Assembly (NCBI GenBank): GCA_012026655.1 | Contig: JAAILG010001616.1 | Coordinates: 1 to 64,000 of the forward strand | Direction: 5' to 3' | DNA length: 64,000 nt | DNA from: Hydrolagus affinis | Taxonomy: Eukaryota | In this document: piece after piece, positions 485 through 18,700 of the stretch | How positions within the stretch are numbered: the first letter of the stretch is position 1 | How the letters are laid out: every line of letters starts with the position of its first letter | Position numbers and translations under genes: made by a program | The notes under the pieces: generated by a model | What the model saw: the letters and a program-made list of their open reading frames with translations, nothing else | Database searches by the model: none | Told to the model about the DNA's origin: nothing

Positions 485-553
485 TGACCAATGTAATTTC
501 ACTCTTGTTTAATTATAATACGTCATTTGCATGGTGCTATTTGTGTTTTGTAG

Positions 554-754
554 GTGCTAAATTTATCCGGAATGTCGACATCACATTCTATCCAGGCAAC
601 GAGAGGTTAAATATAATACAAGTTGCTCAGGGTCTGGATACACAGAGCTATCTGAATGTTATCACAGAGATTGAGGGCCACCTCCCTGTTATACCCTATG
701 GTGCTTCAGTTCAGATCCAGCCATATAGGGATGTCTACCATCACTCCAACTCAG
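554..754 (+). CDS. NID2: NID2 exon, G2 domain ([19 protein letters not shown]...YHHSNS)
   Basis: tttgtag|GT...TCAG|gtatgg; 201 nt, phase 1-1; within ORF 484-837. Confidence 0.92.
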
Positions 755-3700
755 GTATGGAAGGACAATTGTCTTTGTTGAATTACGTGGCCGATCTGGG
801 CAGAAATATTCTGATGATTGTTTCCAATAAAAAATAAACCAATTTTACATTATACGCCTGTGTTTAAGAACTCAGCAGATAGGCTGACATATTGCTAATG
901 ACACCCAAATAAAAACACAAAACATAGAAGGCAGTTGATAATGTGTTTGCCATTGTTTTTGTTTGATTTGTAACTTTCTTTAATCCTTAAAATGGTTGTC
1001 AGATGCTTCTCATCTCTGCAAACTTCTTCTTCACAGTTTTGACATCTACAGCCAAAAGAGAGTATTCTGTTCTTTCCAGTAATGGTGAGACACAGACACT
1101 CAGATATGATTTGAGACAGAATATCACATTCCATGACTGTGAACGCACATCCAGGACTTTCGCAACCACTCAACAACTGAATGTTGCTCGTGTTTTTGTG
1201 TTATATGACCAGAAGGAGAAAGCAGTTAGATATGCAATGACTAATGAGATTGGCTCTGTCGAAGGTAAATAACTCATTATTCTCCTTCATTTCTTTTACT
1301 ACCGATCTACACTGGAATACTGCTAGGAAATTTTATGTAATGCAGTTGTGTACTTTGAATGATGAGGCTCTGGATAGACAGTAATAAATGTGCAGTTAAC
1401 ATTTTAAAAAAAACACTATGGTCCCATGCTGTTGGAATTGAGGAGTCAGCAGTCAATGCAAGGAATTGCAAGTTGAACAACACAGCTACTTGCACCTGCT
1501 GAGACAGAAGCATTGTTCAACAGAACCTTGAACAATGCATTTAATTTCTTCTCACCAGTAACACTGTTTGCAAGCTTTCCACCCCCTGCCTTCCTTTTGT
1601 TCCTTCATGTATAGAAGGTATTTGCACAAATGTTGAGCAATAAATGGACATTCATAAAGGCGGCGGGGTGTGTGTGTGGTGGGTGGGGTCGTGTGTGTGG
1701 TGGGGGGGTGGGGGGGGGTGTGGTGGAGAGCATTGGGAAAAATGTCCTAACACCAAGGTCATTCTGAAGGGGGAAAGAAAGAGACTCCATACAAGTCTGA
1801 TCTCAACAAAGCTCTTTTACTGTGAGTAAGTGAATAAATTGGCTACAGGCCTGAGGTCAGGAAGTCAAAGGATTTAATGGATGCTATAAAGTGTCTGGGT
1901 AAAACAGATCATGAGAATGGTAATGAGCTTCCAAAATGCACAAGGCTTTTCCACTGAAGACTGTTGTGTAGGAAAAAGAGTTAAGTGCTTGGTACAGGAA
2001 CATAAACTGAAAATTTGTACCATAAAGAAGTGGGTTATAATTGCTTTTTATAACCCACTTCCTTTGCATTTTTACTAATTACTATATTTCTCGGTAGTGA
2101 GCTATTTAGCAAAGAGTTACTGTCTTCATCTCTTTCACAGAAAATTTCCACCACTTGTAGTTTTGCAATTGACATCTTTCATTCTACTAAATAAAGCATT
2201 TCTACAGTGTTTTCTTTTTCTAAACAGACTAAAAGAAACTCAAGTGTGCGGATTGTTGTACTGTATTTACAATTTAATTGCTGTTAGTCATAGGGAAGTG
2301 TCCAAAAAATGGAACCCTGTATGATCAGGAGAGTGGCATATTTAAAACTGCTGTTTATTATGATTACAAACAAACCTCAAAGATGTGTCCAGCTGTGAGT
2401 GAGGACATCTCCCTAGATGGGAAACATTTTGGAGACTTAGCCTCACCTGAGAATAGTTGTGTTGCTGGAGTTTCATGATTAATTTCCAGGAATGGTTATT
2501 CTTCTGTGGTTCATGGACACATAACAACAACTATAACAACCACAACCGTACATTTATAGAGCACCTTTCACATCAGGGGGATGTCCCAAGGTGCTGAACA
2601 GTGAGGGGTTGGGACCCGAGCAAGGGGAAGGTTAGGGGTGAAGGGAAGCAGAGAGATAGGGGGGCAGCAGAAGGCATGATCAAAGAGGAGGGGCTTGAGA
2701 CTGGCCTTGAAGCAGGCGAGGGAGGAAGCGAGGCGAAGGAACTGTGGAATGGAGTTCCAGCGTGAAGAGGCAGGGAGGCTGAAAGCCTGTCCACCGCGGG
2801 TAGGGCGGGTCGGGTGGGGGACATGGAGCAGACTGGAGCCCACTGAATGGAGTAGGCGGGCAGACTCATAGGAGGACAGCAGGTTGGAGAGATATGAGGG
2901 AGCAAGGCCATGAATGCTTAAGAGTCTCAGAATGGACTGCCGTTTCGCCACAGGGTATGGAGGCTGAAAAGGTTGATTTTGTCTGTGGCAACTGAATGTT
3001 CTTTGTTGCCGTTATTCCTGCCAGTATAACATACTCTATGGCATCAGCTTCTTTAATCAGTTCCAGGTCATTGACTATAATCTGCCTGTTTTACTGGCTC
3101 TGCAGGTTTTTGGTTGAATGATATCAGTATCCTGTTCTGTCAGATATTCCCTTTGTTTTCTGGTAATCATACACATGGTTTTATAGAATTAAATCCGCTT
3201 TCTTAAATCTTATATTTCCTCTTCAGGAAAAATATTTAAAATGTAATTCTTTTCTGTGTGTCATTGACAGATCATTTGGAGCCTGAACCTGTGAATCCGT
3301 GTTATGATGGAAGTCATGATTGTGATGTCAATGCTCAATGTTCCCCTGGAGCTGAACGAGCCTATCTTTGTAGATGTGCAGAGGGATACCAAGGAGATGG
3401 CAAAGTTTGTACTGGTGGGTGAATACTGCAGCATTTTTGCTCTGAGTTGGTGAGGAGATACGCCAGCGAGATTTAAAGATTCAGTTTACCTGCCCCTTCC
3501 CCAGGGAAAACAACTATGGGCTTACACAAATAACCCATTGGAACCTATACAACAATAACAAAATTATATCTACAGAGTGCCTTTCGTGTCCGGAGGACGT
3601 CCCAAGGCACTGAACAGTCAGGGATTGGGGCCCGAACGTGGGGGAGGGAGAGAGTTGGGAGGGCGGCGGAAGGCATCATCGAAAAGGAGGGTTTTGAGAT

Positions 3701-6700
3701 CGGCCTTGAAGAAGGCAAGGCAGGAAGCGAGGCGCAGGGACAGTGGAATGGAGTTCTGGAATGTGGGGGCAGAGAGACTGAAAGCCCGGGCGGGTCGGGC
3801 GCAAGTCATGGAGCAGACCAGAGCCCGCTGAACGGAGGGGGCGGGCAGGTTGGCAAGGAGTTTAGACAAGAAAACAAGCCATAGAAGTAGCAATATTCAA
3901 AGAAATTGTAAATAATGAGAAAGTAGAGGAGAATAGGACTTCTCATTTCCAGATATATTAGGTGTTAGAATCAGTGAATCAAAGAAAATGCAAGGGTTAG
4001 TATTTGTCCACTGCCAACAATGTCCACTCTTTACCAAGCAAAAAACATGTTTACACCTATTCGCAACAGTGTTATACCCCAATTATTTTACATCTCTGAT
4101 GTTTGTGTGACACAATCTTTTGCACTGCGTCACTGCTGGTAGATTGCTGTGCATTACATTTTATTGCTATGGTATACAGTAATGTAACATCTTGGCACAT
4201 ACCCTAACTATGAAGCTATTTTTCAGATCCTTTATGATGAATCAACAATCGTCCAGTCTTCCATCTATTCCTCATGTGATTCATTTGTTTTGCCAGTTCG
4301 TTGGTCGCACAAATTGGACCGTTTTGAAACTCATTTAAGTACTGTACGACAAACGGGTAATTAGAATGCTTATTGCGGTTCGGAATGAGCCAAGACATTC
4401 TTCAAAAAGAAAAAAAAAGTTTGGACCTGCTCCGTCCAAATTGTGCTTTCTAAGTATTTAAAGCTGTGTTGATCAACTGGACCATTACATTACACGGCTT
4501 TGTAGGTCTTGCCTCTCTGACTTGCAAACTTGCCGACCTGTTGACTTACTCGCTTCCAGAGGGAATTCTATGGTAACCAGATTCTTGTTTCCTTCTCAGA
4601 CATTGATGAATGTGCTGATGGTGTTTACCCTAGATGCGGAAGCCATGCTGGGTGTGTCAATCTCCCCGGATTGTACAGATGCGAGTGTCACCACGGCTAC
4701 AAGCTTGCAGAGGACGGACGCACGTGTGTTCGTAAGTCTTCCAAGTGACTTGCTTTCCGTTTGGGCTCATTCCATTGTGTGTCTAACCAATTACAAACCT
4801 CACTGTTAAAGCTTTTCCTGTACACATTTAGCTGTTGTGATTTATCCATACAGTGCACTTTACAGTATATCCTGCAAAGGGTTTCGAGTCTTGACGATAC
4901 GATAAGGCGCTACATCAAATGCAAGCATTATGCAGTATTATTATTAAACCAGCATCAGTCTAATGTCAACAAACTTTCCTGCTCCAAAGGTCTGACCAAA
5001 TTGAGTAGCCCTGAAATTCACCATTTGAAATCCGACTTTACTTTTTGTTTCAAAAGCTGCATGCTTTTTTCAGGTATTTTAGAACTCCTGCCAAATCTGG
5101 CCAACGATCCCATCCCCAACATGATAGCCATTGTCTGGCTGTCTTTCTATGACATAATGATGGTAGCAAATTGACTGAAAATAGCTTTCACAGATTGTTA
5201 CCGCATTTTACAGATGAGCTCCCCAGAGGATAAGCTTCTTTGCTTTGGAGGCTTGGTTGAGTTTGACAACTCACTGACTACAGGAAGGGATACAGGCAGG
5301 GATTTGTTGGCATTGTGTCTAACCGTGATCTTATTTGTGACCTCAGGATAAAAGGTTGCACATGAATTGTTTCATCGTATCCCTCCAAGGACATGCTTGA
5401 GCCTTATCCCAAAATGTGCCCTGTAATCACCATTATGTTACAGCTTGTTGTCATTGTGGAAAGCAAATGTAACAGAAGATCTTTTACCCTCCTCCCCAAT
5501 CTAAAAACCTTTAGTCCTTTGAGGATTAAAGATGACATGTGTATTTTGCCTAAATTAGTTACAGCTGTTAGAGATGCAACAAACATGGAAAGAACTGGCT
5601 CCCTCGTGTTGATTAATCCCAAACCTTTTAGTTTGAAGAAATCAGCGTGAACCTAAACATCTTTTTACTGGCGTATAAATGCTGACTTGACATTAAAGAA
5701 CAGCTGAAGTAATTCCAACCCCCAAAATCCTGTTAAATTCAGAATGTAAATAGATTCTGTTATACGGGGGGGGGGAGGTGTCCGTTAACTTCTAAGTGAA
5801 ATAGATATGAAATCGCTCTTTTAACCCTTTTATTTGAGTTCCCACCAATTAGTATATTGAGTTGTGATGTTTACCTGCAGTGCATGCAGAACTGCTCTGA
5901 GACACCGTCCGGCACGGAGGGCGCTATATAAATCAAAGTTGTTGTTGTGTTGTTGTTATTAGAAAAAAGGGTCCATAGTCAGTCACAGTGAGGAAATAGT
6001 AATGCAGGTTTCTAAGCTAAGCAAAAATGACTCCCGATAACACCAGGAATGATCTCCTTTGGGAATGTGAAATGGCAGTAACACATGAATAAAGACCAGT
6101 TTGAAGATTCTCAGAGACCAACAGTGTAAAATGTATTCATCCAATCAGCCCCCTATCCCAGATTTATTCCTTGAAGAATAGAGGCACAATCATTGACAAA
6201 CCATTGTAACATAGACCTTTGATAATTGCTATCCATTGCCTCCCCTCCCACCCGCTCGAAAGTGAATCGGCACAGGCAAGATGGGCCAAATGGCCTCCTT
6301 CTGTGCTGGAATATTCTTAAGGACAAGGTAGGGGTTCCACTGTGATGATGCTTAACATTGCTGAATGTCCAAAGGTTCATGTAGTGAATGGCCACTTGAT
6401 TGAGCTCCAGAGTCCTACCGCTGTCACTCATGAAACTGCATTCCAGCACAAATCACTCCTTTATTGAGAGGAGAGGAAAATGAGAGGTTAAACAAAACTT
6501 GACTATGTGCCTCTGCTGTCTTCATTACAGTTGTTGATAAATGTACTGAAGGCAGATGTCACCCAGCTGCTACTTGCTACAATATCCCAGGCTCCTTCGT
6601 CTGTCAATGTAACCCTGGCTATGAAGGAGATGGTTTACAGTGCAGGCCTGGTAAGAATCCAGAACATAATGTTTATAGTAGCTCGGTTTCCTGTAAATGA

Positions 6701-9700
6701 ACCGTGGGATTTCCTGGAATGCTTTGTGTTATCGGATTCAAAAAAGGTTGAGTGGAGCACCTTCTGTGACATGTATGTACATTTAATCTGCAATGGATAT
6801 ATTTTACTATACGATTTTTAATTTAAAAACCCCCCACAAATTAGAAGAGATTCTCATTTCTATATCTTATTGTTGATCTCGAGAAGGCTTGCCAAGTTGA
6901 GTTGGTTTCTCCTGAAACTGCTCTGAGAATGTGGCCTGGAAGTGATTGAATTTAGTTTAATATGTTGGCCGTTCACTGACCAGCCCTGTGCTTGTGACTG
7001 CTCCTGAGCTGTCCAGCTGCAGAAATCCCAGCGTGGCAACTCCTCCGCCACTGAAAGTTGTGGTTTCAAACTTCATGTCAGAACATAGCTCTTAGTCTGA
7101 ATGCTGACATTTTGTTGTGATGCTGGGGGAGTGCTTGGCTGTTTTTTGGATGAGACAAACTGTGATCCCATTTGCCTGTTCGGACAAATCACTCCAAATT
7201 GCATGGAATGATAGAGGATGGAAACTGACCCAAATAATCCATGCTGGTGATTAAACTCTATACAAGCCCCCACACTTCCTATTTTCCTCCTATATTAATG
7301 ATCTTATGACATGAGTTGAAGAGAAGGGAGTACTTTCTGGAATTCTGGCCAATAATCCACAGATAAATTGGTCGTTCAACTCTTGTTTGTTAGTGTGTCT
7401 TTACTGGCTCAAATGGCTCATTTCTTTAATGACCAAACAATTTTGACATTGCTTAATTACTTGCGAAGCGACTTGAAAAGTTTGTTTCAATGTAATAAAG
7501 ACTTATAATAATGCAAGTTCTTTCCAGTTAGCAATACATTTTTAAATGTTATACTAACGTCTCTGCAACAGCTTCAAACACAAAGCAATCTTGATTATAG
7601 AACCCTTCAAAAATTGAACAAATTATCTTTAATCCTGGTAATCTTATTTGACAGATGAAAGTAATCTAATGTTCCAACCATGAATGCTGCATCTGCATTC
7701 CCTGCTTTTTCTTATATTAAGTGACTCACATATTTTATCTGGATTTAATGTGATTTGAAAAATTCCAATGTGCTTTTGCAGTGTTAACCCCCTATAAAGA
7801 ATATTTTCTAAATAAAATGTAGTTATTGTGTAAATGTGGACATTTGACTTCTTAATTAGATGTGTATTCGGTTTAAATATTTCTGGTATACACAGCCCCT
7901 ACACTTTGCAGTGTATTGCTTTAAGACTTTTGGGTGATGTAGTCATTTTCTGTATTGAACGCAAGGATTCTTAACACTGTAATAATGCTTTATGGATGTA
8001 TTTGATCTGAAGTGGTGTAATATCAAATGCACAGACAGTGTTTAATGCGAAATGGATGATCAGCAGGCCGTCCAAAGACCAAATGTGAGCAGGAGCGAGA
8101 CCAAATGCAAACTGGGTTCAGTCCACGTGGACCGAGACCACACCCTGGACGTTATGTCCCACAATGTGATGAAGAAGGAAAATTCACTCCACGGCAGTGC
8201 CACCAGAGTGTTGGCCAGTGTTGGTGTGTGGATGCCTGGGGACGGGAGATTGATGGGACAAAAACATCACATGGAAGTAATGCTCCACAGTGTGGTCTCC
8301 CAGGTCAGTCAGTGTTGTGTTCATTGAATATTCATTACCCTTAAAGTCAAGTACCGGAAACTGTTACACATAACATCAATGGAACATGGCTGCTTTAACA
8401 CATTTCAAATTTTGTGTGCATCACATGCCCTGCCTTCATTGTATAATTGTTCACTTTGTCTTCTTTAGATCAAGCGTTAGCAATCAGCGGTTTTCACCAA
8501 CCACTTTCATTTAGTTATACAGTAGTTAATATTCCTTTATTTTTTCCTTTTATGAGTTTCTTAGGCAGAGGAACTGATGGGCATTATGTGTCTTGCAGTG
8601 ATCTTAAAGTGGCAAATGTGTAAGACAATCTGAACTATTTGACAGGGCTATTCAATGCAGATTGAAATAAGGCAAGGTAGCCAAGGTAGGTAACATTGTC
8701 TACCTTTTTGATCGTTCTGTGTGGCAAGTGTCATGCAAATTAGTTGAGGGAAACCAATGTTAGGGACTAGGCAATTTTCTTATATTTTTCACTCAAGTTA
8801 TTGATCACATTTTAGGAGGAGGGCCTCGACATTTGTATCCTTGACCTTTGCAAGTTCCATTGCCCTCCATGTGAATGGGTGGAAAAGTTGAGCTTAAGCC
8901 AAGGTGTCAAAAAATGTCTCCATTGTTTTTATTCTGCTGTCGTTTGTAAAACTGTCCACATTTCCTTTTCATTTGCTCAGTTATTCCTGACCGTGAAAAG
9001 ACTGCTTGTGAGCATCAGCGGGAAAGATTGCAAGCCGAGTACAGCTCTCGTGGAGATAGACCCCATTTCACCATCCACATTCCCCAGTGTGATGAACATG
9101 GCAAATACAGGCCGATGCAGTGCCACACCATTGGGAACCAGTGCTGGTGTGTGGACGAATGGGGACGGGAAATTCCTGGAACCAGAAAGCCACCTGGAAC
9201 GGATCAGCTACACTGTGAGACGCCAGGTCAGTTAATGTAGTTGTCATTTTGGATGGTGATCAAGACTGGTATAATAATGGAGCAGTTCAAATTGTTCCAA
9301 GAATCTTTATGTATAAAGTGTGGCCAGCTGGAGATCCCTGATTACTTTTCTTGTTGTATTCACACAAGAGTGTAAGAAGATGTATTAATATGACCTAAAG
9401 TGAGCAATTTGACTGATGGAAAACTGATGGTTTGTAAAGTCAGAATGCCCCTCAATGCTTTTGTTTTGCAATAGTTTCGAAAAATCAATTTGTTTTCATT
9501 TGATCAGCATCAATTGAACGTCCCAAGACAGCTTGTGAGATGTAGCGAGACAGTGCGCTAGCGGAGTTTGGCCCACGTGGATCTTGGCCACAATTCGGGA
9601 GCTATGTGGCCCAATGTGATGACGAAGGCAAATACATTCCACTGCAATGTCACAGCAGCATAGACCAGTGCTAGTGTGTTGATGTTTGGGGCCGGGAAAT

Positions 9701-12700
9701 TCCTGGAAGCAAATCACTGTCTGGATCTGTTCCACCACAGTGTGGGCCGTTAGGTCAATCAATATTTTTTGCTTGGCAAATGCTGATCAATAACCCATTT
9801 GAATGCAGGAACTTTTGCAGCTATCCTCGACTGGCTCATATGTTCAAACAAATCTATGGATGATGATGAGCTGGAAATCGAACCCATGTTTAAATTAATG
9901 TAGATTTCAGATCCATGGACCTGAGTGTCACTTTGGACCCGATCTGCCCCTGTAATGCCATGAAGAAAACAACTCGTTTGATGGGGTGCAGACTCGTGGG
10001 ACCCAGAGATTTCTAATTCAAGTGTTTTTCTGGTTAAAGTCAATCACAGTCTGAGTTGCCAGGACAGTCAAAGCTTAGCTTTGCTGCCAAAGCATAGATT
10101 TCCATTGAATACCAACATTTGATTTGAATCTGACAGAACAAGGATTTAACACAGGGTCTAGGAGGTAATGTCCCATAGACGAATCAAGATTTTTTGTATG
10201 TACTGTAATAGGGTGGAGAAAAGCATAAGACTGATGAGCTGAATAGATAATATGTCATTTTTATAGTAATCTGTTTAGAAACCTGGTTTGGGACTGTTAG
10301 TAAAGTTAACTGCCGGTTTATTATGTCTGATATTCCACACGATGTTTGTGGCAAATAGGATGAGTTTATGAGAAGAAAGACAGCTTTAAATTGTCCATGC
10401 AGAGAAATGCTGATTTTAAACACAGCTGGAATGTAAACTGATACAGAGTGAAATACCACAGAGAATTAAAAGATGGAAGGAATGTTTTAAAATATTTTCA
10501 GGGCATATTTTGTCATAGAAACATGACCAGAAATTATCGTAGTTTTCAAATAAATTCAAACATGTTTGTCTGGATCACACTTTAAAAAAAAATACTTCTT
10601 CCAAAATCAGTTGTCCAAAAAAATCTTTACAAAAAATTATTTACAGTCAACTTTTAAAAATTGTAGCTGAATATTGGCATTTTGACATTCGTTTCCCATA
10701 GTTTTTACTGGTTAAACTAATTTTCCTGGAAACATATTATAACACTCTATTTGTAAAATACTCTATTCACATATTCCAGAAGTATATATGTGTGAAATTA
10801 AACCTTCTTTCCTGTAATTTATCATTGTCTTTGGTATGAAATTGTTATATTCCATCTACTGGTACACAGACGCACCAATTCACAATAACTCCTATGAAGC
10901 GCTTTGAGACACCGTGATAACGCGTTAAAGCACTACACAAATGCAAGGAATCTTAAAAATTATTGTTATAGATGCAATGAAGAGGAAGCTAGACCTTCAG
11001 ATGAGAGAGAGTCGAATAGAAGGATATGAGATAGAGTAATGCAATGGATGGAGACTCGTGTGGTTGGGCTGAGTCCAAAGCTGTTTCAACCATGTACATT
11101 TTTTTGTAAAAGTGTTATAGAGAAGCTGTCAAACTTGCCTTTGATTTGCAGCAACAAGACGTCCAAAGACTGCATGTGAGGACCAGCGAGACAGAGTGAA
11201 TGTAGAATACAGTTCATATGGAGCTCGACCTTCTGTTGGTTTCTTTGCTCCTGAGTGTGATGATGAAGGCAAATTCAGGCCACTTCAATGTCACAGCAGT
11301 ATTGGCCAGTGCTGGTGTGTGAATGAAAGGGGAGAGGAAATCCCTGGAACCAGAACCTTCCCCGGAGCTGATCAACCACGGTGTGGTCTTCCAGGTCAGT
11401 CACACTGGTTTCCTTTTTGAGAAGGAATGATTTTTAACCTGGAGTACGACATTATTCTCTTACTGATCTTCCTGCTTCTGTACCAAGAAAGGGAAACAAA
11501 TCTTTTTTAAATGTAATTAGGGCAGTGAAAATGCAAAGTCCTGTATCGACTTGACCATGGATAAAGGGAACGGTTTCCTTGAATCAGCTGGTCTTACAAA
11601 TCAAAATCTGTGATTTTATCCTTTATAAAAAAGATTTATATACAAGTATTTGCTGCACATAATTTATAGTTCAGTTAATTGAATGAATAGTTCAGTTTAG
11701 TTAGAATACAGAAATCCCAAACCATTTACATGCCTTATCTAACAATATAGATTGATTATGGATTGAATGCTGGATGTACAATAAAACTCGAATGAGTGTT
11801 ATCTTTATAAATCATACAATCGCTGAAGTTAAACAAGCACCCATGTTCCATTGAGTTTCCTATTAAAACCACTTTAATTTCTTTGACTAATAAATCACCT
11901 CCTAACTCATAAACTGCTCCCCGTATTCTCTATTATTCTGCCGTTTAAATTGGAGCTATAAACTATCTTTTATTAGTTCATATATCTCATTAAGCAATAT
12001 TGTAAATCAAAGTGAGGAAATTCTATTCAACGTGGCACATTAAAATGGATTTCAGAACCTACAACAAGCCCACAGACTCTGTGTGAACGATGGAGAGAGA
12101 TGTCAGAAAATAGCAGGACATCAGCAGATCAGTACATCCCCCAATGTGACGATTATGGGAACTTTAGACCCATGCAGTGTCGTGGAGACCGTGTGTGTTG
12201 GTGTGTGGGTAAAGATGGTCGAGAAATTCAAGGAACTGGAACCCAGACTGGCATTCTTCCAGCATGTGAGAACTTTTTTTTCATTCTGGTAGGGAATAAA
12301 ATTGTTTTTTATTTAAGAGAAACTTGAAGAAGAAAATAAATCCGCTAAATGCCAAGCATGGGAAATGTATGAGGAGAGGGGGCACCAATCTGCCAAAATT
12401 ACTAGTAAGAAACAAATGATTGGAAATGATTGGTTAGGTCAGAACTGCGAATGGGAGGTGGCTGGAGCTTTTGATGTGGCTCTGATAGCAGTTCATATTA
12501 CAGGTATTTAAATGGGGGGGATCACCTCTGATAATTTGATACTATTCACTTTAATGAATGAATTTGGACAAGATGGGATGTGCATGTCAGTGTAAAACAA
12601 TGTCAATGGGAATAGTTCTCTTGCCCTCACTGGTTAGACAAATGCCATGAGTATGAATATATGTGTACATCTAAACAGATCTAAAGCTTTATGCCCACTC

Positions 12701-15700
12701 GAGGCCATGATTAAGTGCCCCCAATCCCAGAATATCTCAGAGACAGCAGAATATGTCATTTTGTAGATGTCTTGGTTTAACCAACAATTCATTGCTTTTT
12801 AAAAAAAAATCAAGCAGTAAATTTATATAATCCTTCATTGATACAGCTGGTGAGAATCACATCTTCCACTCCATAACACTTAATACCTAATTTCACTTCC
12901 TACCCACTATCCCAATCATTTCTTGTTAAATAGCTCTGTCTTTCAATGCTGTGTCATAATAATAATCCTTGCATTTGATATAGCACTTTTCACATCTTAT
13001 TGATATTATTTCACGTCTTACAGTCTTATGATATTTAGTGAGTATTACTTTTATTAGTTCTACCTTTTGGTGAAAGTGCAATTATGTAACCTTCCATTGC
13101 TCATAAGGAATATATCTGTAATAATAATAATCCTTGCATTTGATAAAGTGCCTTAGCACGACTCTGAGATATTTACAATGTACTTCGCAAAATATACTGT
13201 AAACTGAATTAACTGTGTATTTTGTAGGTGAAAAATGTGCTTCTAATGTGCTTCATATTTCTTTTGTTGAATTTGCCAGGTATACCAACTGTTGCACCTC
13301 CCACTGTACAGTCCACTCCATCATCTCTTGTGACCCCTCCATCTACTGGTACCTTCCTTTTATATGCTCAGGGACAGCACATTGGGTACCTTCCCCTGAA
13401 TGGTACTCAGTTAAACAAAGAAGGAGCCAAGAGCCTGTTAGCTCTCCATGTAATGTACCTTCTTTTCTAACTTTCTCCTCTGGGATACCCCAAAACTGTT
13501 TAGCACTTGGGAAAAGGGGTGGTGGGGTGGGGGGGTGGTGGGAGTGGGGGGTGAAGGTAGGGCAAGGACATTTATTCAACACATATGCAATTGGCTCAAA
13601 GTTGAAATCATGCCAAATCAAGCACAGACTTGACCCGAGTTCACCAGACCTGATCAGTGCAAGATCTGTCCAGAGGTGAAAACCATTGTAACCACAAAGG
13701 AAGTGCCATGGTTTCTTGGTTACAGTGAAAAGCTGTGTGACGATTAGTCCAGCTGAGAATGGAAAATGAGCACATTCACTTGGCCCTACGAACGAATCGA
13801 ATGCAACTGCAGATGTTGTGAACGTGATCACACATTCACACAGACAAATTGGCAACAGAGCTTTTTTCTAAACACTCACTAAATCATTGCCACATTTGGT
13901 CTACGCATAAAACTGGTGTAATACTGTATTCTGTGAACCAGCTTAAGTGTACCACTTGCATAGAAACCATTGATTTGAAGGCAACTCAATTTTTGCATGT
14001 TTTGTTTCCCCTCAAAAACAATTTTCTTCTCCTTATTAGCACCATAAACCCTTATCTCTACAGTGATCTAATTTTGTTTTTGCCAACAGCTGTGATGAAT
14101 TATTTACTATGTGATCTAGCACATTACCTTTATATGTGGAGATTTGGGAAATGTGTCCAAAGGGACAGGTAGTTTAAGCAAATTATAAATTATGCAAGTC
14201 TGTTCAAACAAGTCAGTAATTTCAATCCTATGAATAAATAATAAGTTCTCTGGCAGTTAGACAAATCTACAAGCTTCTCATATTGGATTCTGTTGTGGGA
14301 ACTTCTTAGAGCTGTGCTGAATGATTAATATTTTTCTCCTCTTTCCTTTTCCAAGGGTTCCATTGTTATTGGAATCGATTATGACTGTCGGGAAAAGATG
14401 GTATACTGGACTGATGTCGCTGGCCGGACCATTAACCGAATTAGTTTGGAAATTGGCGCCGAGCCAGAGATTGTGATTAATTCAGGTAAGTTGAAATAAC
14501 AATTGCTTTTAGAATTTCTTTTCAGAAATGTGTGCTTTTACATCAATCAAAATAATTTGAACTCTTTTGTTTTTTTAAAAAAAATCTGTTGTAAACATTT
14601 TGTTTAAAAAAATGTACATTATTATACGTCATATAAATTTTGGCTGCCACATTTCACCCATAAAATATGCTGTCACTATATTTTACAGTATATTCTGTAA
14701 ATGGTGAGATCCTGAGATGTGGAGATCAGCAATGCCATAGGATAGATCCCTGGTTTGTGCTGATAGCTAGTGCTTCCAGCCACCATTGATCTCCAGTGAC
14801 CTACGAAGCAACACCATCTTCCATGTGTATAAATGTTGAGTGAGGAAAGGATTGGTTCCTCTGTGATGCCTCCCATAGTTAAATAATCAGTCAGTGCACC
14901 CATTTTGAATGCGGTATTGAACCCATTACTGAAACATTGAGCAATACAGATCTTTTGGGTGCACAAGTCTAGCCTACAGATATATCTGTGTGTTACCCCA
15001 AAAGCAGTAGCGTGAATTAAGTACAGTACTGGAATATAAAGTTCAGTCAGAGTAATGCAAGGATTATTGCCACCATTCATTAAATAGCTACTTTCTCCTC
15101 CAATATTCCCCCTCCCGTCCTCCTTCCCTGAGGGTGTTTATCTTTCCTTCTACTGAGGTATCTTCCCAACTGGCATAAGTGCCTTTCGGAACTTCACCCC
15201 AGAGGGCAATATGTATCTATGAGCATTGAGAATGAATGTCTGTAGGCTGTTTGACTGTGGGGGAGGGAGTTGGATATCACAGTGAGCCCAAGCTTATCCA
15301 TACAGCCGTTCCATCCAACAGGGGCTTCTATATAGAAATCAAGTGTGGGAACCATGGCTGATGTTTTAATTCCTTAGACCTGTTGTGCTGACACCATTTG
15401 TAGCAGCCGAACGTCTACTCAAACTGAGATCAGTGAGTTCAGCACAAATTGGAAATGAAACCTATGACCTTCTCATGGGTAAAGGCACCAGTGGAGCTTC
15501 TAATTCTAAAGTTTCTCAGGAAAGATCAATTGGCACCTAAATTGCAGCTGCGAGGCCAAATACCATTTGCTCTAAATTGCAGGGTGTACTGTGAGTGACT
15601 GACTGATATCTCCTCTTTGTACTTCTAGTTACGCTAAAGCTTTTAGAATGCACTGGTTAGATAACGCCTAGAATGCTGTGTTTAGCTTTTGCCCCCATAC

Positions 15701-18700
15701 CAGAAGAACATTAGAAAAGTTTGAGAAACAGTAACTAACTAAGTTAAAAGGAATGAGTGATGGAGAAAGATTAGAGAAACCTCATCTGCAAAGAGGCCAT
15801 TTAAGGGGCAGCTGGATTTAGCGAAGCACAATATTTGCAATTGTACAGAAGAAATAAATCCAGAATATTTTTCAAAATCAGCCAAGTGCATAGGACCAGA
15901 GGATACAAACAGGAAACAAAAAGCAAGTTTAGAACCATATCCAAAAAAACTTTGGTAATGGTTTATAATCTTTGAACCAGATTAAAGGAATCAAAACTAT
16001 TGTAAAATATTCCAAATGCAATCAGCTATCACCATGTCAGAATCAATATACTGGAAGGATATGATTGATTCAAGAACAGTATCGAGCCACTCACCGGGGT
16101 AGCTTCTCCAAGCACTGCATTAGCTAAATGGCTTTTTCTCATCTTGTATTCTTTCTGCTTTAGGACTGACTAGTCCTGAAGGGCTGACCATAGACTACCT
16201 TCGCAGACGCATGTTCTGGACTGACAGTGGATCAGATAAAATAGAAGTTGCAGGGGTGGACGGCTCTCATCGGCGGGTTCTCTTTGATACTAATTTGGTG
16301 AACCCCAGAGCAATAGTGGTGGATTCTCTCAGTGGGTGTGTTGACATGCATGTTTTAATTTCTCTTCAAAAGAGTTCTGCCAAATAGAAGATTGTATACA
16401 GTTGTTTTCTTCCCCCAGAAAATGTGGTTTTCACTTAGGTCAATGGTACAATTATGGAGTTTTAGTTGTTGGCAAATGAACAGTGTGATTTTCTCAACAT
16501 ATGACACCAATTGAAATTAAGTGCTATTGCAGATCTTGTACAGATGTTGGTACCAGACTTTATGGTTGATCTAAAGTATTTGCATTGTTAAAAAGGCTGA
16601 GGGAAATTCACATTGCGCTAAATTGTTTTGGGTAGAATGCACTCCAAAGCCACCAGGTTCCACCAGAATTGAAATAAGCCCGGGGCTCGAGAATGTTTCC
16701 TTTTAAGATCACCTCAAAAGATAATGGGCTGCTCTGTAAAAGCTAAATGACAGGCTATGTTGACTTCAGATTAGATATGGAACATTGTTTTAATTTTTAC
16801 CCTATTCTGCTTTCCCTCCAGCAACCTTTACTGGACAGACTGGAATCGCGAAGCTCCTAAAATTGAGATGTCTTACATAGATGGAACTAATAGAAGGGTC
16901 TTGGTTAAAGATGACATTGGATTGCCCAATGGATTGACTTTTGACCCCTTCTCCTTACAGCTGTGTTGGGCTGATGCTGGTACGTTTCATGAGATAAGGA
17001 TTTTTAAAACAAAATCTATAGTTGTCAAAAATCATCAAAACTGGTAGGTATTGTGATGGAATTTAAATTGAGTTAAACATGAAGACTTTGAAGGTTAAAA
17101 AATAAACATGGGTGAAGAATCCTGCATGTGATGTGTGTGCCTGTGTATGTGTGTCCCAGATTACTAACACCTCTTCTAATATGTTTTATTGGGGACTGGG
17201 ATCAAAAGGAACCAAAAACCTGGAGTGCATATTTTCAGATGGAACAGGAAGACGTGTGGTACAGCTTGGCCTAAATTACCCCTTTAGTATTGTTGCCTAT
17301 TCAAATCACTTCTACTACACAGACTGGAGAAGGTAAGAATGAAACTTTGATGAAGCTATTCATTGAAATGTATGCCAAACCAAATTACCACCTGCCAATG
17401 GACATTAAAGATTCCATTGCTCTACTGTATTGTGAGAAATCTGGGTTAAATTCCTGGCAGAGTGAAATCTTGGGAAAGTTTCCTTACTCCACATGCATAA
17501 CAATCCCTCAAGAAAAAATAATTGGTCACTCAATCCATGACTGTTTATGGGACACTGCTGTGCGCAATTGACTGCTGAGTTTTGCCCATAAATATACAGT
17601 CAATTCACTTTACAGTATATTCTGTGAAGCACTTTGAGACATCTAGAAGGCATGAAAACGCTATATCAAATGCAAGGATTATTATAATATTTCAAAAAAG
17701 AGCCGGGAGTTACCTTGTTTTCTAGCCTCATGCATATTAATCAGAATAGTTGAATCAGTCATTCAACAGATTGTTGTTTGTGGATAGATGCTAACAAAGC
17801 TGCTATGTTTGCCTATATAAACTTACTCAGAGTTAAAATAACTCCTAAATTGGGACTCTGTTGGGACATTTTACCATGACAAAGCATCGTATCAAATTGA
17901 AGTATTTTACTGTTAGATATTGATATTGAATATTATAGATTCAATAATATAACTTTTATGCATTTGGGCTTTTGAGAACCATTTTAAAAGGCTGAATATA
18001 GGTTTAATGGAATACAAGTCTCTAAATATATTGGATTTAGATTTCCTTGAAATCTATAGATTATTTTTCAATATGCCTCCAGTAATGATCTCTGATCTGA
18101 ATCCTGTTTTTTGAATATTTTAATATATTAATGGCACGGAGTACACTGTCAGCTACAAATGACTGAATGTAAACTCAGTTCTCACGTGACACTAATTTTC
18201 CTTCCTTTGCAGAGATGGAGTTATTGTTGTAAATAAAGCTAACGGCCGTACTACTGATGAGTTCCTACCAGATCAACGATCGCACCTGTATGGAATAACT
18301 GTGGCCTATCCTAGTTGTCCACATGGTAAGGTGCCTTAAAATCTCCTGATGGAAAATACCATCTTATTTATGTCATTTTTTAAAAAAAATTGCTATGCCT
18401 CCAGTTTCACTTTCTTCCCACCTCTCCAGAATGCGCTATCAGTGGAACACAATTAAATTTGTTACTTTATCCAGGTAGCCTCTGATTATACAGAGTAAAG
18501 TGACACAATTCATGTGCCTAAAGGCACTGTTTCCAGCAACATCCCAACATTCATGATTTTACGTCAAGGCCATGATTTCTCAGCACAAGCCGCATTTTAT
18601 TTTCCTAAAGCCCTAACATCTTGCAACATAGCGTGGGGTTGATGCTTCATGTAACTTGTCATCCTCTAAAAATGCTTTTGGACATCTAAAAATGTTGAGT

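Follow-up and report, generated by a model that had tools for sequence, protein, structure and literature searches.

A probably dead thyroglobulin type-1 exon in the NID2 repeat array of a chimaera

The window analyzed here is a 64,000-nt stretch of Hydrolagus affinis DNA (contig JAAILG010001616.1; coordinates are those of the whole window), and its first 18 kb comprise the 3′ part of NID2 on the + strand, with two G2F, three EGF, five thyroglobulin type-1 (TY), and several G3 exons. Our analysis suggests that one of the five TY exons, here called exon X (9508..9753), is very probably a dead, skipped exon that belongs to a birth-and-death repeat array and has been decaying in steps. Exon X has an intact orthologue in an outgroup (TY3 of Callorhinchus milii NID2), its disabling changes are present in the DNA, and the reading frame of the gene survives its skipping. 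Birth-and-death turnover of exons is well known from tandem exon arrays, and exon X is a new instance of this class, an ordinary fate in an array of widely variable length among cartilaginous fishes.

The sequence bears out the description given in a first-pass annotation of this DNA: exon X is 246 nt long (a multiple of three), lies in phase 1-1, has an acceptor (...ttgatcag) ending at 9507 and no frameshift, encodes six cysteines (residues 9, 36, 47, 54, 56, and 78), and carries TAG codons at 9543 and 9672. With tryptophan read at both stops, it matches PF00086 at 65.9 bits (E 2e-18, cut-off 20.6), a score far enough above the cut-off that a chance TY match can be set aside; the domain match, the six cysteines, and the position between the EGF and G3 exons mark it as a NID2 TY exon. 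Also correct was the observation that its donor reads gtcaat where three sister exons have gtcagt: the donors of exons A (8303), B (9226), and D (11394) are all CAG/gtcagt and agree with the familiar U1 consensus at eight of nine positions, compared with six of nine for exon X. An intact duplicate of exon X elsewhere in the genome was considered and rejected, as none was found by a DNA search (three matches, all inside the window) or a protein search (11 matches from 15 candidates, the best outside the window being 48% identical), these counts being lower bounds.

The ancestry of exon X was placed using a tree of 345 repeats, comprising those of 19 species (one isoform each) and the window's five. 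Callorhinchus NID2 has seven TY repeats, in all five of its RefSeq-type isoforms, which correspond in order to A, B, X, D, D, D, and C, and exon X pairs with the third of them, TY3, with a tree support of 0.97 and 79.7% protein identity. TY3 is intact, with CEMQRE and CWCV at the relevant sites; since it has glutamine at one and tryptophan at the other, the first stop must have replaced Gln and the second Trp. The wider set of repeats agrees, in that Trp occupies the second site in 340 of 340 repeats and is ancestral there, while at the first site it is found in 19 of 19 terminal repeats but 0 of 321 internal ones. The first-pass annotation had seen a hint of RNA editing in the alignment of both stops with Trp in exon C; this no longer holds, as exon C is a terminal-type repeat, and we rejected it as a comparator for exon X because it falls among a different repeat type in the tree. 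Callorhinchus TY3 itself (residues about 1232-1313) departs from three near-invariant positions, with Thr for Pro (331/340), Lys for Arg (326/340), and Ser for Pro (329/340); the repeat was therefore atypical before exon X died.

The two stops differ in age. We compared positions 8950-9850 with contigs of four public runs, namely X1 (organism A), X6 (organism B), X7, and X12, the last of which covers only paralogous pieces and not exon X. Organisms A and B are about 2-3% divergent from the window, and both have C at 9543, that is, CAG, whereas X7 has TAG. X7 yielded three contigs with 0 differences from the window, two of which span the TAGs (9450-9652 at depth 6 and 9628-9850 at depth 3.8), although its independence from the source of the window is not established. 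A 310-nt contig of organism B, covering 9502-9811, has five differences, none at 9673 or 9758, and because all five are located at other positions, the 9672 TAG and the weak donor of organism B are firm. For organism A, no change is listed at 9673 or 9758 with 22 of 26 differences accounted for, and sharing of the stop and donor is only likely because the remaining four, probably near the ends of the stretch, are unlisted. Judged from these contigs, which drop rare variants so that a heterozygous allele could go unseen, the 9672 stop and the weak donor are older than the split from organism B, and probably also than that from organism A, and the 9543 stop arose after that split, in the lineage of the window alone. 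Both stops and the donor change postdate the split from Callorhinchus; one analysis dates crown Holocephali to about 173 Ma (PMC11521621). The earlier proposal of a recent pseudo-exonization through CAG>TAG and TGG>TAG, with skipping, thus stands for both base changes (Gln and Trp in Callorhinchus, CAG in the relatives) and, as the likely outcome, for skipping, while “recent” has to be refined, as the stops are of different ages.

The pattern of substitution in exon X is close to what would be expected of unconstrained sequence. Counting the differences from the window listed in the contigs of the relatives, which are few, exon X has seven non-synonymous changes (one of them a stop) and two synonymous ones, with a pN/pS of 1.0-1.35 on these nine changes. 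Exon B, our internal control, has two non-synonymous and four synonymous changes (pN/pS 0.13-0.18; binomial P 0.018-0.047 against neutrality). Relative to organism A, exon X diverges by 2.85%, the intron by 3.9%, and exon B by 0.81%; relative to organism B, exon X diverges by 2.03% and the intron by 1.78%. R62W and P76Q, both found in organism A, introduce residues that occur at these sites in none of the 321 internal repeats, and the window and both relatives have in common R26W (0/321) and G52D (5/321). One CpG codon of exon X has mutated independently, and differently, in organisms A and B. Even when Trp is placed at the two stops, exon X scores 103.5 bits against a hidden Markov model (HMM) of internal repeats, the lowest among internal holocephalan repeats (the others range from 110.8 to 135.8, with 118.3 for Callorhinchus TY3 and 110.8, 121.8, and 130.4 for exons A, B, and D). 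Taken together, exon X appears to have changed in a neutral-like manner since the split from its relatives, and the selection check proposed in the first-pass annotation leans toward neutrality on these few changes, with a contrast to exon B that falls short of significance (Fisher P=0.14).

That small-count contrast is one of several points that weigh against a dead exon. In organism B, the total divergence of exon B (2.44%) is as high as that of exon X (2.03%). Amino-acid counts polarized against Callorhinchus do not single out exon X, as its excess of changes on the window's side (8 vs. 1) is echoed in exons A (7 vs. 3) and D (7 vs. 2-3). Its protein identity to Callorhinchus is also no lower than that of exons A (76.9%) and B (81.0%); similar distances fit an exon death that came late relative to that split, but add no support for it. 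Exon X further retains its acceptor, the GT of its donor, and an unshifted frame. Finally, other NID2 donors lack a G at +5 (1264, gtaaat; 13449, gtaatg) or match the consensus at six or fewer of nine positions, although these exon ends were set from tblastn and some may be misplaced; with other donors of the gene equally weak, the donor by itself is no proof of skipping.

We nevertheless favor a dead exon X, for which the following course of events could account. The spliceosome would skip exon X and splice the end of exon B (9226) directly to the start of exon D (11152) with the frame kept, giving a full-length protein with four TY repeats; the joined A-B-D-C frame encodes 312 aa with 0 stops, compared with two stops when exon X is included. 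Inclusion may have been lowered by the G>A change at +5 of the donor, if the G of the sister exons is ancestral, or by an earlier status as a cassette exon. Selection would then have relaxed and TGG>TAG become fixed, although the order of the donor change and the 9672 stop could equally be the reverse, and CAG>TAG would be a later step of plain decay. If exon X were leakily included, the product would be a substrate of nonsense-mediated decay (NMD), which we would regard as noise rather than regulation.

A regulatory role is the alternative in which exon X has been co-opted as a poison exon, whose inclusion would tune nidogen-2 levels through NMD or through a secreted fragment without G3, the laminin-binding domain (PMC10972974). 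Its splice dinucleotides and pyrimidine tract are kept, its donor is weak but plausible, and the 9672 stop is common to several species, though common descent also predicts a shared stop. Under the usual rule for NMD, a premature stop has to precede a later junction by over 50-55 nt, and the two stops are 208 and 79 nt before the end of exon X, with more junctions downstream. However, many of the poison exons on record belong to the most conserved elements of genomes (PMC11357089), whereas the comparison above, of low power with 246 nt and two relatives, places exon X at about the intron rate in both relatives. The suggestion of a poison exon made in the first-pass annotation thus finds no support in conservation, and we consider it improbable. 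The intact splice dinucleotides would also allow exon X to be included constitutively, leaving NID2 truncated or null in these chimaeras. Conservation of G3 argues against this, as open frames persist in exons D and C and in the G3 exons, and in tblastn five of the six G3 pieces share 87-97% identity with Callorhinchus (the remaining one, at 68%, runs into an intron), and exon B has been under purifying selection after the 9672 stop arose; we hold a broken gene to be highly improbable. Least of all do we expect the stops to stem from heterozygosity or from an error of assembly or base calling, an extremely improbable explanation. The assembly is fragmented (245,464 contigs), and the 9543 TAG is matched by one further contig only, at depth 6 and from the run of unestablished independence; yet the contigs speak for real stops, with both TAGs matched in X7 and the 9672 TAG found independently in organism B at about 2% divergence.

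The remaining alternative is A-to-I editing, in which UAG becomes UIG, is read as Trp, and the domain is restored. This idea is sharper in organisms A and B, because these carry a single stop, the 9672 TAG, which derives from Trp by precisely a TGG>TAG change, and the precedent of the NARF Alu exon shows UAG>UGG editing at over 97% (PMC1852406). In our structure predictions, A9673 lies opposite C9656 in a 2×2 internal loop of a hairpin at 9652-9679 (-7.6 kcal/mol), with a flanking stem of pair probability 0.8-1.0 in three of five folding sizes, and is flanked by a 16-pair helix equalled by one of 40 control adenosines. ADAR favors A-C mismatches and the UAG context. However, the 16-pair helix is weak (-15.0), exon D forms the same hairpin with nine pairs and more strongly (-10.3), and the A-C mismatch is explained by G>A in a former G-C pair. 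Beyond this short hairpin shared with exon D, scans for inverted repeats, folds, duplexes, and helices found no editing-grade duplex over either stop that exceeds controls. Among 91 inverted repeats, none of the 25 longest covers either stop; the fold of 9400-9900 has z=-0.99, and 16 of 100 shuffles do equally well; the best duplexes within ±2.5 kb of the two adenosines reach -25.8 and -26.4 (control mean -24.9, sd 3.2, n=24), and those across 1-22000 reach -26.7 and -27.0 (controls -28.3, sd 3.6, n=20), where a perfect duplex would give -56.7. NARF editing, by comparison, needs an Alu-Alu duplex (PMC1852406), which has no counterpart at exon X. The first stop, moreover, was Gln and not Trp, no selection is visible on the protein frame of exon X in its small counts of changes, chance alone would give two TAGs with P 0.08-0.13, and TGG>TAG makes up 7-15% of the routes to a stop. 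The rescue by editing raised in the first-pass annotation is therefore not borne out, for want of a suitable duplex and given the Gln origin of the first stop, and we give it only a very slight chance. Equally slight is the chance of its extended form, in which ADAR would recode a TGG>TAG fixed in the genome of chimaeras, in an exon for an extracellular-matrix protein, and editing would decide between NMD and a nidogen-2 with five repeats; relatives of the organism A and B type would then keep a working switch, which the lineage of the window would have lost with a second stop. Rescue by editing, if it did occur, would make exon X a rare example among vertebrates of a stop recoded to Trp in a coding exon that is not Alu-derived.

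The features on which this reading of a dead exon X is based are collected in Table 1. NID2 exons of the window are 77-97% identical to Callorhinchus NID2, which also provides the closest proteins to exon D in six of six matches (nine candidates; 65-88% identity), and PF00058 is matched by two of the five G3 pieces scanned.

Table 1. Features of the NID2 locus and of exon X in the window
Feature	Position	Strand	Remarks
G2F exons	about 550-754, 1033-1264	+	tblastn with Callorhinchus NID2 at 80-90% identity; Pfam
Three EGF exons	about 3261-3414, 4596-4730, 6527-6664	+	tblastn at 80-90% identity; Pfam; upstream NID2 block is 550..6664
TY exon A	8064..8303	+	orthologue of Callorhinchus TY1; open frame
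TY exon B	8981..9226	+	orthologue of Callorhinchus TY2; internal control, with purifying selection; open frame
3′ splice site of exon X	9483..9507	+	pyrimidine tract and CAG intact
TY exon X	9508..9753	+	orthologue of Callorhinchus TY3; likely dead and skipped
First stop	9543..9545	+	residue 12; TAG from CAG (Gln); confined to the window's lineage among the contigs compared
Second stop	9672..9674	+	residue 55; TAG from TGG (Trp of invariant CWCV); older; common to organism B and probably A
5′ splice site of exon X	9751..9759	+	TAG/gtcaat, weakened; A at +5 (position 9758)
TY exon D	11152..11394	+	one copy here, three in Callorhinchus (TY4-6); open frame
TY exon C	12056..12265	+	terminal-type repeat (Callorhinchus TY7); open frame; ends CAT/gtgaga
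G3 (LDL-receptor class B repeat) exons	13280..18330	+	open frames; downstream of the TY exons

A few observations concern the other TY exons. The single exon D stands against three near-identical D-type repeats in Callorhinchus, which could reflect a recent gain in Callorhinchus or a loss in the lineage of the window. Collapse of D copies in the assembly was considered and rejected, as a contig of organism A has one D-like placement 1385 letters past 9850 (1405 in the window); the depth of D pieces is not raised in X6 or X7, a weak test because depth does not equal copy number. The acceptors of exons A and C (8039-8066 and 12031-12055) have poor pyrimidine tracts, that of exon A with a tandem CAGCAG, and Callorhinchus isoforms vary by two to three residues where TY1 begins. 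In the tree, the branch of exon A is long (0.21), and its HMM score falls below that of its orthologue (110.8 vs. 122.7), so this may be a relaxed exon, or one with weak inclusion. Exons B, X, and D lie between the arms of an inverted pair of 20 nt (8376-8395 and 11835-11854; 95% complementary), which may represent a small repeat element or might allow the B-X-D block to be looped out in the pre-mRNA.

In the literature we could search, which took in neither bioRxiv supplements nor most subscription journals, there was no paper on exon X or on an expansion of NID2 TY repeats in chondrichthyans. Searches on tandem exon duplication, pseudoexons, and birth-and-death evolution turned up general papers only, and the accessible part of a preprint on thyroglobulin evolution (10.1101/2025.06.18.660348) has 0 mentions of shark or Callorhinchus. 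Exon X offers a stepwise snapshot of the death of an exon across three chimaeras, and it is also a trap for annotation, since gene models with exon X in them would make NID2 look broken.

Among known systems, the NARF Alu exon resembles exon X in having an in-frame UAG in a cassette-type exon that would encode Trp if edited, but the reported NARF exon combines a long Alu-Alu duplex with measured editing (PMC1852406), whereas no comparable duplex was found for exon X. Poison exons such as that of Smndc1 likewise contain premature stops and lead to NMD if included; they are described as highly conserved and autoregulatory (PMC11357089), whereas exon X derives from a coding repeat and diverges like an intron. 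The closest parallel is with pseudogenized symmetric exons in tandem arrays, with which exon X has in common its 1-1 phase, a loss that keeps the frame, an intact outgroup orthologue, stepwise nonsense and splice-site decay, and neutral-like change, and from which we see no mechanistic difference. The gene itself follows the rod of vertebrate NID2/nid2a, with G2F, EGF, TY (PF00086), and LDL-receptor class B (G3) domains in the same order, and differs in the number of its TY repeats. The window has five, one of them dead, compared with seven in Callorhinchus and 11-26 in 18 species of sharks and rays, and teleost NID2 matches have 9-23; these counts lean toward long arrays because they were taken from the best 120 of 1749 matches. 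TY repeats number six in zebrafish Nid2a and two in mouse NID2, and the authors of that work note that, in structure models, the first four repeats of the zebrafish protein lie away from G3 (bioRxiv 10.1101/2021.11.24.469833). Annotated isoforms of Chiloscyllium, Amblyraja, and Scyliorhinus, which are predicted models, vary by blocks of 80-82 residues or multiples of these. The NID2 TY rod would thus range from four working repeats here to 26 in a catshark model, a difference that would alter the length of this linker of the basement membrane.

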